A stretch of 64,000 nucleotides of DNA from Patescibacteria group bacterium (GCA_038078835.1 JBBTQI010000004.1:3352-67351); one strand, 5' to 3'. Shown: positions 2,712 through 64,000, counted from the stretch's first letter. A program made the numbers and translations. Notes: generated by a model not told the origin, from the letters alone.

Positions 2712-3980
2712 ATGGTCGAAAAAGAGATACTGGATAACGGTTTACGTGTTATACTTATTCCAAATCAAGCCACTAATGTCCTCTCGGCTATGGTGATGTT
2801 TGGGGTGGGCAGCCGCTATGAATCGGATGAGCTGGCGGGAATCTCTCATATTCTTGAGCATATGAGTTACAAGGGAACTTCGAGGCGGCCGACACCGATC
2901 GAGGTGGCCGAAGCAATCGAGTCTGTCGGCGGGGAGCATAACGCCTTTACCGGCAAGGAGTACACAGGCTACTATACCAAGGTTGCCCCGAGGCATCTGG
3001 AGACGGCACTTGATTTTCTATCGGACATCTTGCTCAATTCCAACTATCACGAATCGGATTTAGAGCGGGAAAAGGGCGTCATCATCGAAGAGGTGAATAT
3101 GTATGAGGATACGCCCATGGACCTTGTCGGTAATAAATTCGAGGAGGCCCTCTTTGGGGCCAATGCTCTCGGGCGCGATGTTATTGGCACCAAGGAAACT
3201 ATTTCGGCTGTTACCCGGGCCGATCTGGTCAGCTATCGACAATCGCATTACACCGGGCCTAACACGACGCTGGTTCTGGCCGGCAACTTCGGTTCTCGCA
3301 CTCCGGCTGATCTGATGAGGCTAATCACCAAGTACTTTGCTTTTGCCGGCAAGACATCAGTCGATCTGTCGCCACTGACCTTTGCAGAGAAGAAGTCCTC
3401 GAAGATTATCACAAAAAAAACGGAGCAGTCGCATCTCGTCCTCGGTTTTTACGGCGCCCCCTTTGCCCACCCCGATCTCTATAAGCTCAAACTTTTGGCT
3501 GTTATTCTGGGCGGCTCAATGAGTTCGCGTATGTTTATCGAAATCAGGGAGAAGCGCGGTTTGGCTTATGCGGTCAGGACAACGGCGAACGGTTATAGTG
3601 ATACGGGAACGATTGAGACCCAGATCGGCGTCCCGCACAATAAGGTGGCCGAGACTATTAAGGCCGTCTTGGCTGAGTACCGCAAGATCAAACAGGAGTC
3701 AGTTGGCGAGGCGGAACTCAAAAAGGCCAAGGAAATCGCTCTAGGGCGAATGCTTATCTCCTTTGAAGATTCGCTAAACCTGGCGATGCATTATGCTACA
3801 GGCGAGACGATTGCCCGAGAGGTCGTGACGCCGGAGGAGTTGGCTCGTCTCTTCGAAAAAATCTCCTCACGTGATATAATGGATACGGCCAAGAAGTATT
3901 TGCGGGATGACCGAATGGCCCTGGCCTATATTGGACCGTCTTTATCTCAAGTCGAGCTAGAACCGATATTTACACTATAA
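2712..3980 (+). CDS. M16-family zinc metallopeptidase (pitrilysin/insulinase-like), HxxEH motif (HILEH); the upstream part of ORF 2619 overlaps the tRNA, so start at 2712
   Basis: Inverted zinc-binding motif HILEHMSYKGT; M16 N- and C-domain-like sequence; ATG 2712 (MVEKEILDNG). Confidence 0.75.
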   Translation: MVEKEILDNGLRVILIPNQATNVLSAMVMFGVGSRYESDELAGISHILEHMSYKGTSRRPTPIEVAEAIESVGGEHNAFTGKEYTGYYTKVAPRHLETALDFLSDILLNSNYHESDLEREKGVIIEEVNMYEDTPMDLVGNKFEEALFGANALGRDVIGTKETISAVTRADLVSYRQSHYTGPNTTLVLAGNFGSRTPADLMRLITKYFAFAGKTSVDLSPLTFAEKKSSKIITKKTEQSHLVLGFYGAPFAHPDLYKLKLLAVILGGSMSSRMFIEIREKRGLAYAVRTTANGYSDTGTIETQIGVPHNKVAETIKAVLAEYRKIKQESVGEAELKKAKEIALGRMLISFEDSLNLAMHYATGETIAREVVTPEELARLFEKISSRDIMDTAKKYLRDDRMALAYIGPSLSQVELEPIFTL

Positions 3981-35387: not shown

Positions 35388-36536
35388 ATGAAAAAATTGG
35401 TTTTAATTGATTCCAATGCCATTATCCATCGGGCATATCATGCCCTGCCGGCAAACCTCTCAAACTCCAAGGGCGAGCCGACCAATGTTACCTATGGTTT
35501 TGCCCTGGCCCTCATTAAAATCCTTGAGGAGATCAAGCCGGATTACATCGCCGCCGCCTTTGATCTGGCTGGCCCGACCTTCCGGCACATTGAATATAAA
35601 GAATATAAGGCCAAGCGGGTCAAAGCCCCTCAGGAGCTCTACGATCAGATTCCCAGAGTCAAGGAGATGCTTTCGGTTTTCGGCGTGCCCATTTATGCTG
35701 TGGCGGGATTCGAGGCTGATGATGTGATTGGAACGATTGTAGAACAGTGTAAGGATGGGGACACAATGGTCTATATCGCTTCAGGTGACCGTGATGTCTA
35801 TCAATTGTTAAATGGTCATGTTAGGGTTTTAATGCTTCATCGTGGCTTTTCGGAAGCGGAGATTTTTGACCACGACCACCTGCGGGAGAAATATAACTTA
35901 GACCCGGAGGACTTTATCGATCTCAAGGCCTTGATGGGCGATGCATCCGATAATATCCCCGGTGTGCCGGGAATTGGACCGAAAACTGCCACGGACTTGA
36001 TACAAAAATTTGATACGTTAGAAAAGCTTTATGTTGCTCTAGATTGTCATTCTGAACCCATTCGACAAGCTCAGGGCAAGCTCCGCGAAGAATCTAGCGG
36101 AGTGTCCGATGCGGTCGCCAAAGGCGACCTAGATCCTTCGGCTACGCCTCAGGATGACAGCGGTAAAAGATTGAGTGACACATATATTAAAGAAACCTCT
36201 AAACGGTTGGGTATCAAGGAAAGAATAGTGCGATTACTATGCCAACACGAAAACCAGGCTTTTCAGTCGAAGATGCTGGCTACTATCCGGCGAGATGTGC
36301 CGATTGAGTTTGATCTGGCCAAGGCCCGCTGGGGGCAGTATGATAAGGACAAAGTCCGCCGATTATTCGAAGAGCTGGAGTTCAAGTCATTGCTGAGAAG
36401 ATTTTCCAAGGATTATGAAGAGGCCGAAGGCCCAAGGCCTGTCCTGAGCGGAGTCGAAGGGCCGAAGGCTGAAGATGAGAAAAAGATCACCGAAGAGCAA
36501 AAGAAAAAAGATGAGCAGTTGAAGTTAGAATTATAA
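35388..36536 (+). CDS. polA: DNA polymerase I 5'-3' exonuclease domain (FEN-like) - first of two polA pieces; ends in a low-complexity tail containing GGCCGAA-type repeats
   Basis: MKKLVLIDSNAIIHRAYHALP....IAAAFD...FRHIEYKEYKAKR.. and LEFKSLLRRF match the PolA N-terminal nuclease. Confidence 0.8.
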   Translation: MKKLVLIDSNAIIHRAYHALPANLSNSKGEPTNVTYGFALALIKILEEIKPDYIAAAFDLAGPTFRHIEYKEYKAKRVKAPQELYDQIPRVKEMLSVFGVPIYAVAGFEADDVIGTIVEQCKDGDTMVYIASGDRDVYQLLNGHVRVLMLHRGFSEAEIFDHDHLREKYNLDPEDFIDLKALMGDASDNIPGVPGIGPKTATDLIQKFDTLEKLYVALDCHSEPIRQAQGKLREESSGVSDAVAKGDLDPSATPQDDSGKRLSDTYIKETSKRLGIKERIVRLLCQHENQAFQSKMLATIRRDVPIEFDLAKARWGQYDKDKVRRLFEELEFKSLLRRFSKDYEEAEGPRPVLSGVEGPKAEDEKKITEEQKKKDEQLKLEL

Positions 36537-61752: not shown

Positions 61753-63027
61753 ATGGCTGAAGTGGAAAAGCTACGAATTATCTGTCCCAAATGCCAAGCG
61801 GAGATCTCTATTGACGAGGCTTTGCGGGGCCAGTTGGTTCAAGGCGAAAAAGACAAAGCCGAAAAGGAATATCAGGGTAAGCTGGAAGCGGAGAAGAAAA
61901 AGCTCTGGGCGATGGCGCTTGTGAAAGCGGAGGAAAGATCAAAGGCCGAAGGCCGAAGGCAGAATAAGGAGCTGGAATTTTTAAAGGAACAACTGGAGAT
62001 CCAGAAGAAGAAAAGAACCGAGGCAGAGGAGGTAGAGCGGAAACTTCGAAAGGAAAAGTTAGAACTTGAAGAGTCTAAAAAATCATTTGAGCTAGAGAAA
62101 CAGCGCCAACTAGATGAGGAGCGGGCGAAAATTCGGGAGGAGACATCAAAGAAAGCTGACGAAGATCATCGCTTGAAAGAGGCCGAGTGGCAGAAAAAAT
62201 TTGAAGATATGAAAAAGTCATACGACGATGTTAAGCGTAAAATGGAACAGGGTTCCCAGCAGACCCAGGGTGAGGTGTTGGAGCTGGAACTCGAGGAGAT
62301 GCTCCGGGCCGAATTTGCTATCGACGAGATCACGCCGGTGTCCAAGGGGATCACCGGCGCCGATATCATTCAGGTTGTCCGCGATCAGACCGGACACCGT
62401 TGCGGGCTTATTGCCTGGGAACTCAAGCGGACTAAGGCTTGGAGCGAGGGGTGGGTAATCAAGCTAAAGGATGATATGCGCAAAGTCCGGGCGGAGATTG
62501 CCATTCTGGTGACGGAGGTTCTACCCGATGGTATTGTCGAGTCGGGCTATTATAATGGTATCTACGTGAGTGTGCCGCGGTCAGCTCTCTCGTTGGCGAA
62601 GATGCTCCGCCTTTATATCATCAAACTCTCCGCTCTCTCGGCAATTGAGGAGGGTAAGAGCGAAAAAAAGGATGTGATCTATAACTACCTTTGCGGGACG
62701 GAGTTCCGGGGGCGAGTCGAGGCGATCGTCGAATCAACCGTTGCCCTCAAGGAGTCGTTGGATCGGGAGAGGCGGGCATATCAAAAGCTGTGGTCGGAGC
62801 GGGAGAAGCAGATTGAGCGGGTCGAGAGCAATATGATCGGGATGTACGGCGATATGCAGGGCATTGCCGGCCGAACCCTGCCCCAGATTAAAAGCCTGGA
62901 GCTGGAACCGGAGCGAGATCCAAAGATGATAGCAGCCAAGCCGGTGAAGCAAGATAGGCCCAAAGAAAGCGGGACCGCCCAGCAGCTGCACTTTGCGCAG
63001 CCAGGAATGGACGACGAACAATACTAA
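61753..63027 (+). CDS. DUF2130-family protein (N-terminal zinc ribbon CPKC, long coiled coil, C-terminal nuclease-like domain), with an in-frame GGCCGAA repeat
   Basis: MAEVEKLRIICPKCQAEISIDEAL.. plus K/E-rich coiled coil and ..GADIIQVVRDQTGHRCGLIAWELKRTKAWSEGWVIKLKDD.. as in DUF2130. Confidence 0.65.
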   Translation: MAEVEKLRIICPKCQAEISIDEALRGQLVQGEKDKAEKEYQGKLEAEKKKLWAMALVKAEERSKAEGRRQNKELEFLKEQLEIQKKKRTEAEEVERKLRKEKLELEESKKSFELEKQRQLDEERAKIREETSKKADEDHRLKEAEWQKKFEDMKKSYDDVKRKMEQGSQQTQGEVLELELEEMLRAEFAIDEITPVSKGITGADIIQVVRDQTGHRCGLIAWELKRTKAWSEGWVIKLKDDMRKVRAEIAILVTEVLPDGIVESGYYNGIYVSVPRSALSLAKMLRLYIIKLSALSAIEEGKSEKKDVIYNYLCGTEFRGRVEAIVESTVALKESLDRERRAYQKLWSEREKQIERVESNMIGMYGDMQGIAGRTLPQIKSLELEPERDPKMIAAKPVKQDRPKESGTAQQLHFAQPGMDDEQY

Positions 63028-63151
63028 CGACGAATCGCTAACCAAATAACCTAATTTCTAATTGACCTGATTGATCTAAACAAATCCTAAAATCTTAGAT
63101 AGGGTTAGAAACTGGAGCTTGGAAATCGTTTAGATTAATTAGAAATTAGAG

Positions 63152-63324
63152 TAATTACCAGTGTTGCGCAATTAATTGGCGATTCCTCGAATTGTCATCT
63201 CGAATCCGCCAACCGGCGGATGAGAGATCTCCGCTGTAGCAGCAAACTAATTCGAAGATTTCTCGCCTCCAAGGCCTCGAAATGACAGATTGTGGGCAGG
63301 ATTGCGCAACACTGGTAGTAATTA
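63152..63324. repeat. ~175 bp element bounded by ~22 bp terminal inverted repeats (TAATTACCAGTGTTGCGCAAT / ATTGCGCAACACTGGTAGTAATTA) with internal hairpins; MITE-like element or structured ncRNA upstream of dnaG
   Basis: 15 bp perfect + 7 bp imperfect TIR; flanking direct AT-rich TAATTAGAAATT on both sides; internal stems TCCGCC-AACC-GGCGGA and CGGA...TCCG. Confidence 0.45.
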
Positions 63325-63383
63325 GAAATTGTCTTAGTTGTTCGTTGTTGGAACGATTAGTTGTTCCTTTATGGTTGGTAAAC

Positions 63384-64000
63384 ATGGATGAAGTCCAAGA
63401 GATAAAACACCGCCTTGATATCGTCGAGGTGATATCAAGCTATCTTACCTTAAAGAAAGCCGGAGTGAACTATAAAGGGCTCTGTCCTTTTCACAATGAA
63501 AAAACACCCTCCTTTATGGTCTCGCCCGAGCGCCAGACCTTTAAGTGTTTCGGCTGTTCCGAGGGCGGCGACATTTTTACCTTTATTGAAAAAATGGAGG
63601 GTTTGGACTTCTATAACGCCTTGAAGATCTTGGCCGACCGGGCCGGGGTTCAGCTCAAGAGCCGGTCGGTGCGCCGGGGCGAGCAGGAGCACAAGGCCGA
63701 TCGCAAAACCCGCCTCTTTGAAATTAATGACTGGGCAAGGCGGGTTTATTATAAGCTGCTTCTCGATCATCCCAAGGCCGACACCGCCCGCTCTTACTTA
63801 AAAAAACGCGGCTTAGACCAAAAGACGATTACCGATTTTCAGATCGGCTATGCTCCGGACTCCTGGGATTTCTTAATCAGATTTCTAAAGAGCAAGGAGT
63901 ATACCGAGGAGGAGATGCTGCAGGCAGGCCTGGTTGTCCGCAACGATCGGGGCAAATATTACGACCGCTTCCGCGGCCGGGTGATGTTTCCGATTAGCAA
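63384..64000 (+). CDS. dnaG: DNA primase DnaG, N-terminal zinc-binding and TOPRIM portion (continues beyond the window)
   Basis: ..IVEVISSYLTLKKAGVNYKGLCPFHNEKTPSFMVSPERQTFKCFGCSEGGDIFTF.. is the canonical DnaG zinc ribbon. Confidence 0.92.
   Translation, partial: MDEVQEIKHRLDIVEVISSYLTLKKAGVNYKGLCPFHNEKTPSFMVSPERQTFKCFGCSEGGDIFTFIEKMEGLDFYNALKILADRAGVQLKSRSVRRGEQEHKADRKTRLFEINDWARRVYYKLLLDHPKADTARSYLKKRGLDQKTITDFQIGYAPDSWDFLIRFLKSKEYTEEEMLQAGLVVRNDRGKYYDRFRGRVMFPIS

Follow-up and report, generated by a model that had tools for sequence, protein, structure and literature searches.

The closest described systems to the element reported here are the CGTC-tagged REPs, which are known from five phyla (PMC3733652, Di Nocera, De Gregorio and Rocco 2013). 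These repeats carry a terminal CGTC tag, often found as TGTC and with a CCTC variant allowed, and fold into hairpins whose stems of 8-9 bp open with A-T pairs and enclose a loop of 4-5 nt, followed by a 3-nt tail with the consensus CCA (PMC3733652). They occur mainly as inverted dimers with spacers of 20-100 nt, are sited within genes for replication and repair and lack a dedicated transposase; dimers regularly set in longer palindromes are reported from Halothiobacillus neapolitanus and Anabaena variabilis (PMC3733652). The Neisseria repeat dRS3 and the Rickettsia conorii repeat RPE-6 are both CGTC-1, and RPE-4 of the latter organism is CGTC-4 (PMC3733652). The arrangement dRS3-RS-dRS3 is known as NIME and was said in 2007 to be absent outside Neisseria (PMC1797815).

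A second point of comparison is QMITE2 of Coxiella burnetii, whose full-size copies of ~190 bp have terminal inverted repeats (TIRs) of 23-29 bp and direct repeats of 7-9 bp (PMC5896051, Wachter et al. 2018). The small copies are more numerous, are without TIRs or direct repeats and have been called 'essentially REP elements' (PMC5896051; review PMC10969869).

Here we describe a 160-bp element located upstream of dnaG in a 64-kb stretch of Patescibacteria DNA (64,000 nucleotides, referred to as the window), in which an outer shell of TIRs flanked by target-site duplications encloses a core built as an inverted REP dimer. Loci collected for comparison are given L numbers.

Structure of the element

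The sequence of 63152-63324 matches the description in the initial annotation. Verification of the boundaries base by base places the element at 63157-63316, with the following features (position, strand, description).

63150-63156, no strand: left target-site duplication AGTAATT, an exact 7-bp direct repeat touching the terminus
63157-63172, no strand: left TIR ACCAGTGTTGCGCAAT, 16/16 complementary to 63301-63316
63173-63192, no strand: left spacer TAATTGGCGATTCCTCGAAT, 20 nt, present only in the window and L080 copies
63193-63287, plus strand: core, an inverted dimer of TGTC-tagged hairpins (REP dimer), arranged as TGTC, hairpin a, spacer hairpin, hairpin b, GACA
63197-63228, plus strand: hairpin a, ATCTC-GA-ATCCGCC-AACC-GGCGGAT-GA-GAGAT, read from the sequence
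63229-63257, plus strand: central spacer of the core, 29 nt, with complementary ends CTCCG...CGAAG
63258-63283, plus strand: hairpin b, ATTTC...GCC-TCCAA-GGC...GAAAT, read from the sequence
63288-63300, no strand: right spacer GATTGTGGGCAGG, 13 nt; a spacer of 11-13 nt stands here in five of five copies
63301-63316, no strand: right TIR ATTGCGCAACACTGGT, the mate of 63157-63172
63317-63323, no strand: right target-site duplication AGTAATT, exact and touching the terminus

The tag TGTC occupies 63193-63196 and its complement GACA 63284-63287. Terminal inverted repeats of about 22 bp had been proposed for this locus. The repeat itself is real, but its exact part is 16-17 bp long (17/17, E = 7e-4, by blastn-short and a repeat finder; 63156/63157-63172 against 63301-63316/63317), and it is the sole strong inverted self-match in the 64-kb window. 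The additional TAATTA counted into the longer repeat is part of the flanking AGTAATT direct repeat and not of the TIR. Similarly, TAATTAGAAATT, which had been taken for the target-site duplication in place of AGTAATT, is a distinct AT-rich 12-mer with three occurrences in the intergenic spacer (63051-63063 as reverse complement, 63136-63147 and 63319-63330) and is older than the insertion of the element. The TIR contains TGTTGC..AA, which we take to resemble IS6/IS26-like ends, a resemblance on which no claim is based; the IS6/IS26 family makes 8-bp duplications.

The predicted folding of the element is well beyond chance. As RNA, the 173-nt stretch 63152-63324 folds at -79.3 kcal/mol on the plus strand (z = -8.0, with none of 200 shuffles as low) and at -76.0 kcal/mol on the minus strand (z = -7.9), and the 160-nt element as single-stranded DNA folds at -40.1 kcal/mol (z = -6.6). 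The predicted RNA fold is multi-branched with a GC-rich outer stem of ~20 bp. The interior pairings listed in the initial annotation (TCCGCC-AACC-GGCGGA, GTCAT/ATGAC and GAGAGATC/GATTTCTC) are all present, and its statement that nothing protein-coding lies inside is upheld, the only coding potential being an antisense ORF of 76 aa and a false extension of dnaG, in frame from ATG 63282. The initial annotation had not recognised the interior as a repeat in itself, a TGTC-tagged REP dimer. A fold of such stability would suit a structured RNA, yet the stability is about equal on both strands, which counts against a dedicated transcript.

In two independent assemblies of this organism the sequence is broken off within the element, with L003 ending at the window equivalent of 63224 and L004 at 63199. 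Such breaks are expected in de Bruijn assembly at repeats or strong palindromes.

Copies with the shell at other loci

MITEs are defined by TIRs together with site-specific flanking duplications at unrelated loci. The first additional copy, in L025, was found by nhmmer through 20 identical terminal bases and lies far from the dnaG of the L025 genome. A metagenome scan with the 17-mer TACCAGTGTTGCGCAAT gave 41 stretches, most of them chance matches, with a second inverted arm at four independent loci. The resulting five copies and their abutting direct repeats are as follows.

Window copy, 160 bp: AGTAATT (7 bp)
L080 copy, 205 bp: ATTAATATT (9 bp)
L025 copy (the locus also represented by L070, L074, L076, L079, L086 and L107), 111 bp: ATGATATT (8 bp)
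L097 copy, 139 bp: ATGGTTCT (8 bp)
L098 copy, 171 bp: decayed, with only a shifted 5-bp ATCAA

The direct repeats are exact in the window, L080, L025 and L097 copies and differ in sequence at each site. The same 16-mer ACCAGTGTTGCGCAAT terminates all five independent copies (111-205 bp), an invariance of the left TIR that is partly an ascertainment effect of finding the other copies through one exact TIR arm. The copies adjoin unrelated housekeeping genes (polysaccharide deacetylase, LigB/Memo, FtsX/ABC and HisRS), and no transposase adjoins any of them. Differing duplications that abut the same termini at unrelated loci constitute a MITE signature, and the MITE candidacy raised in the initial annotation is supported. 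Besides the four copies at other Patescibacteria loci, one shell-bearing copy lies in the window and its 9 kb extension.

Of the 160 positions that the L080 and window copies share, 155 are identical (~97%), and L080 has one 45-nt insertion in addition. The L080 copy comes from the same aquifer well as the window organism, and the flanks of the two copies are unrelated. The left spacer is down to 1-2 nt in the L025, L097 and L098 copies. The polarity of the core is constant in all five copies, as is the asymmetric spacing between TIR and core (0-21 nt on the left, 11-13 nt on the right). The right TIR of the L025, L097 and L098 copies shows three or four substitutions that are uncompensated on the left, which speaks against the outer stem being selected as an RNA helix and, with it, against the small RNA gene that had been listed among the candidates.

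No autonomous relative was found. A search of 1 Mb of collected loci for inverted TIR pairs at most 6 kb apart gave none, and neither an autonomous element nor a transposase with these TIRs was seen among the collected loci, plasmids, phages and viral contigs. The composite element had no blastn match in plasmids or phages, and a scan of viral contigs for the TIR-core junction returned seven chance matches and no element. L089 and L101 have a 22-mer in common with the left end; they contain no second arm or long ORFs and were rejected as chance matches.

Further palindromic inserts were observed in the loops of the core hairpins. In the L080 copy, hairpin b (~590-640) contains an extra 45-nt palindromic insert with TCGC on both sides, and small palindromes of the type TTCGAC...CTGAG...GTCGAA occur in hairpin loops of the exonuclease module of the window (described below) and of the L011 and L097 modules. 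These loop palindromes suggest that the nesting extends to a third tier, in which the loops of the hairpins are the insertion sites. A degenerate relative of the core was also observed at L005 1700-1866, reading GCCATCTCGA...TCGAAATGACAGATT..GGGGA with TTAATTAG on each side; TIRs are not recognisable there, and the sequence may be the decayed remains of an old composite.

The core module family

Searches of the loci with AATGACAGA and with GTCAT...ATGAC palindromes revealed many modules that resemble the core and have no shell. They were found in L005, L006 (several), L011, L017, L036, L040 (two), L044 and L049, and at 36045-36159 of the window. The window core and 14 other modules from Patescibacteria loci (15 in total) have the common frame GTC-AT..AT-C..G-AT..AT-GAC, or in full (T/C)GTC, an AT...AT hairpin, C, a complementary-ended spacer, G, a second AT...AT hairpin and GAC(A).

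The A-T start of the stems (ATCTC...GAGAT and ATTTC...GAAAT in the window) is found in 15 of 15 modules. Stem position 3 is C-G in the 5' arm and T-A in the 3' arm in 11 of the 15, including the window, where hairpin a has C-G and hairpin b T-A. Pairing from arm to arm would leave a C.A mismatch and a G.T wobble at this position. At the four pairs that close the centre, Watson-Crick pairing was observed in 46 of 58 cases across the modules and G-U in 4 more; past 5 bp in the arm stems, only 18 of 60 pairings are Watson-Crick. The compensation within each arm indicates that each arm is selected for self-folding, as in a four-way junction, and that the module has a polarity. Such compensatory changes in the stems of the core family are also what a structured RNA would be expected to show. 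Three core subtypes were distinguished among the shell-bearing copies, namely ATCTC/ATTTC in the window and L080, ATTGC/ATTGC in L025 and ATCCT/ATTCT in L097.

A link to described repeats is seen in the L011 module (3551-3665), one arm of which is the Neisseria dRS3 consensus ATTCCC-N8-GGGAAT. This arm, ATTCCCGC-CTGC-GCGGGAAT, has an 8-bp stem and a 4-nt loop. By blastn the module matches dozens of sites in Neisseria gonorrhoeae, and the same 25-30-nt arm occurs in replicons of Cupriavidus, Azospirillum, Photobacterium, Aeromonas and Sphingomonas, so that distant phyla have the hairpin unit in common. The canonical module of L040 had no match in plasmids. Right after dnaG in L006 (4571-4740), two tandem modules form a NIME-like mini-array.

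Modules inside protein-coding genes

A second module of the window lies within a gene.

36045-36159, minus strand: TGTC-tagged REP dimer without TIR shell, in frame in the 5'-3' exonuclease gene 35388-36536

This module encodes a 38-aa insert (CHSEPIRQAQGKLREESSGVSDAVAKGDLDPSATPQDD) in the exonuclease (Pol I N-terminal/FEN-like). Alignments with the Taq and M. smegmatis Pol I structures (PDB) jump across the insert site, and the Pfam 5_3_exonuc SAM-fold domain is interrupted there. Further REP dimers were found in frame in an alanine racemase gene (L017 2833-2912), in a prepilin peptidase (A24) gene (L040 614-685) and in a UvrD-type helicase gene (L040 10707-10782), each with Pfam domains on both sides, and REP-like inserts occur in the C-terminal tails of DUF2130 orthologues (L006 2595-2678 and L005 5760-5830).

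The intragenic modules are found in both orientations and use two reading frames, which indicates that the modules were inserted as DNA and that open frames were then selected. Rickettsia palindromic elements likewise insert in genes with open frames kept. The modules account for otherwise unexplained inserts of 24-38 aa in the 5'-3' exonuclease, UvrD helicase, alanine racemase and prepilin peptidase.

Genomic context and the RNA question

The neighbouring genes of the element are as follows.

61753-63027, same orientation as dnaG: DUF2130 gene, the upstream neighbour
63384-64000, plus strand: dnaG with its true start at 63384, Pfam Zn_ribbon_DnaG aligning from residue 3; a neighbour and not part of the element

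The upstream gene had been named recX initially and is the DUF2130 gene; rpoD lies downstream of dnaG. The element ends 67 nt upstream of the dnaG start and is co-oriented with both neighbours. In the public gene calls (record GCA_964364305.1, a Berkelbacteria-like Patescibacteria (CPR) MAG from Hainich groundwater), dnaG starts at ATG 63282, within the element, and gives a 609-aa product. Because the Zn_ribbon_DnaG alignment begins at residue 3 of the ORF at 63384 and the relatives start at the same MDEVQEIK as this ORF, the start is placed at 63384, and the 34-codon DnaG extension in the public calls is an artefact of the open frame of the element.

The DUF2130-dnaG spacer measures 356 nt in the window against ~28 nt in L005 and ~66 nt in L006, both of which are without the element; these two loci were the only ones to keep this gene order among the 62 related dnaG loci fetched. 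The element was found by nhmmer upstream of dnaG in none of the 62 loci. A search of the protein database for a sister strain with an empty site gave no DUF2130 homologue at 68%-100% identity; the predicted sequence of the empty target site is TTAGATTAATTAGAAATTAGAGTAATTAGAAATTGTCTTAG.

Rfam 15 contains no curated RNA family matching the element region at gathering score, and only noise was obtained at E <= 10. On the window and six module-carrying loci, Rfam returned only tRNAs and noise matches to miRNA-precursor-like hairpins. No sigma-70-like promoter was found on the plus strand between 62900 and 63500. Retron msr-msd, hammerhead-like ribozymes and integron attC sites were rejected by inspection, with no reverse transcriptase gene nearby, no CUGANGA...GAAA core and no GTTRRRY core, respectively, and Rfam silent on all three.

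A structured RNA, either a cis-regulatory leader of dnaG (the riboregulator proposed initially) or an independent small RNA gene, would account for the stable multi-branched fold (z = -8), the position 67 nt upstream of a co-oriented dnaG and the compensated core stems, but is very improbable, given the silence of Rfam, the lack of a promoter, the equal folding of the minus strand, the uncompensated right-TIR substitutions, the lack of the element in the orthologous spacer and ahead of dnaG in relatives, and the occurrence of copies beside unrelated genes and of core modules within genes in both orientations.

Directly upstream of the element, an AT-rich foldback of ~99 nt was observed at 63051-63149, with arms CTAATTTCTAATT..ATCTAAAC and GTTTAGAT..TAATTAGAAATTAG and an RNA fold z of -3.65. 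This foldback could be the decayed remains of a second such element or a group of sites bound by protein.

Comparison with known systems

The window core has several features of the CGTC-tagged REPs, namely the TGTC tag, the A-T stem starts and the inverted dimer with a 29-nt spacer of complementary ends. In both, the arms can fold separately or as one long hairpin, and in-frame copies lie in replication and repair genes, represented here by the 5'-3' exonuclease and the UvrD helicase. There are also differences. The window hairpins are longer (32 and 26 nt); each is closed by a 5-bp stem, beyond which come an internal loop and another stem, and they thus depart from the rule of an 8-9-bp stem and a 4-5-nt loop, to which the L011 arm conforms. 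The window tails read CTC and CTT rather than CCA, although the L006, L011 and L049 copies have CCA. Finally, Patescibacteria/CPR lie outside the five phyla listed in 2013, and the window copy is enclosed in a TIR/TSD shell.

The N. gonorrhoeae unit L108, a NIME, has the same frame as the modules described here, GTC-ATTCCCGTGAAAACGGGAAT-C...G-ATTCCCGCCTGCGCGGGAAT-GAC, its arms being GTC-ATTCCCG..CGGGAAT-C...G-ATTCCCGC..GCGGGAAT-GAC, and the tandem modules of L006 are a further likeness. However, the window arms are off the 20-bp dRS3 consensus ATTCCC-N8-GGGAAT and have only the frame in common with L108, no long arrays occur in the window, and NIMEs are without a TIR shell or duplication.

In architecture, which was compared here rather than sequence, QMITE2 resembles the present system in its two tiers, its very stable predicted fold and its copies overlapping gene ends, but has TIRs of 23-29 bp against 16 bp in the window element. 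REPINs with their RAYT genes are likewise non-autonomous doublets, in which inverted hairpin units end in a conserved tag and together form a long hairpin; the tag is GTAG instead of TGTC, however, and REPINs have no target-site duplication. No RAYT gene was seen at the loci of the copies. The GGGGWSAS motif of TIRs associated with Y1 transposases (PMC3733652) was also considered and does not fit the right spacer. Classical MITEs (Correia, ERIC, RUP and Nezha) are similarly small, non-coding and AT-flanked, with TIRs, duplications, a stable fold and, as proposed for the element, mobilisation in trans, but show no sequence similarity to the element via Rfam. A literature search with DNA strings of the element returned only primers and unrelated sequences, and nothing was returned with peptide strings encoded by the repeats.

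Origin of the element

We consider it about 80% probable that the element is selfish, non-autonomous mobile DNA, consisting of a MITE shell that carries a REP dimer. This reading builds on the TIRs with their duplications, on the occurrence at independent sites, on an orthologous spacer that lacks the element, on the membership of the core in a wider family and on the intragenic copies. In the outer tier, a transposase supplied in trans, probably of the DDE type, would bind the 16-bp TIRs and make staggered cuts of ~8 bp, and integration in AT-rich intergenic DNA would duplicate 7 bp at the window site and 8-9 bp at the others. As a counterpoint, the length of the duplication varies (7, 8, 8 and 9 bp) and L098 retains only its shifted 5-bp repeat. 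In the inner tier, the TGTC-tagged dimer can adopt either a single long hairpin or a four-way junction, whether as RNA or as single-stranded DNA, and it spreads without the shell as well, including in frame into protein-coding genes.

Tentatively, and with low probability, the TIR/TSD shell could be the missing vehicle of CGTC-type REP dimers, moved within and between Patescibacteria genomes by a transposase that duplicates ~8 bp; shell-less dimers would then be decayed descendants or the product of a second mode of propagation.

It is also conceivable, though improbable, that the shell is a separate foldback or 'target palindrome' (TACCAGTGTTGCGCAAT facing ATTGCGCAACACTGGTA) into the centre of which resident REP dimers insert, so that composites arise independently in each genome. 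The core subtype differs between copies with an identical left TIR, the two TIRs would make one near-perfect palindrome if the core were removed, and REP dimers are known within longer palindromes in H. neapolitanus and A. variabilis (PMC3733652). No empty palindrome was seen, however, and among the 41 metagenome matches to the 17-mer every one with a second arm had a core. Independent insertions are likewise difficult to reconcile with the constant polarity and asymmetric spacing of the core in all five copies. In either case, the direct repeats flank the shell, so that the shell itself is mobile.

The MITE shell with its REP dimer would also be compatible with a later co-option, in which an element of mobile origin came to serve as a terminator, RNase III site or mRNA stabiliser separating DUF2130 from dnaG-rpoD. 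A GC-rich outer stem of ~20 bp between two co-directional genes fits this proposal, and REPs and MITEs are reported mostly downstream of ORFs, where they act at the RNA level (PMC3733652; PMC10969869). Against it, there is no T-run after the stem, the only terminator-like site on the plus strand is a separate hairpin downstream (63350-63367), and there is no sign of conservation at the dnaG site, which leaves co-option unlikely here. If DUF2130 and dnaG are co-transcribed, the element would contribute at most a very stable hairpin to the intercistronic transcript. A dedicated role in dnaG regulation is not expected, and the meaning of the element for dnaG biology is most likely none.

Significance

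Genomes of Patescibacteria are very small and streamlined, and to our knowledge few mobile repeats have been described in them. No papers on REPs or MITEs in Patescibacteria were found in the literature searched. The element is ordinary in kind and apparently not yet described in candidate-phyla-radiation bacteria. Points of modest interest are the shell with its target-site duplications, the putative nested inserts of a third tier and the annotation artefacts caused by the repeats, such as the DnaG extension and the gene inserts. With these modules, the CGTC-tagged REP superfamily, which includes dRS3/NIME of Neisseria and the RPEs of Rickettsia, gains another phylum, and a REP copy packaged in a TIR/TSD shell, in two tiers like those of QMITE2, bears on the question of how CGTC REPs move.
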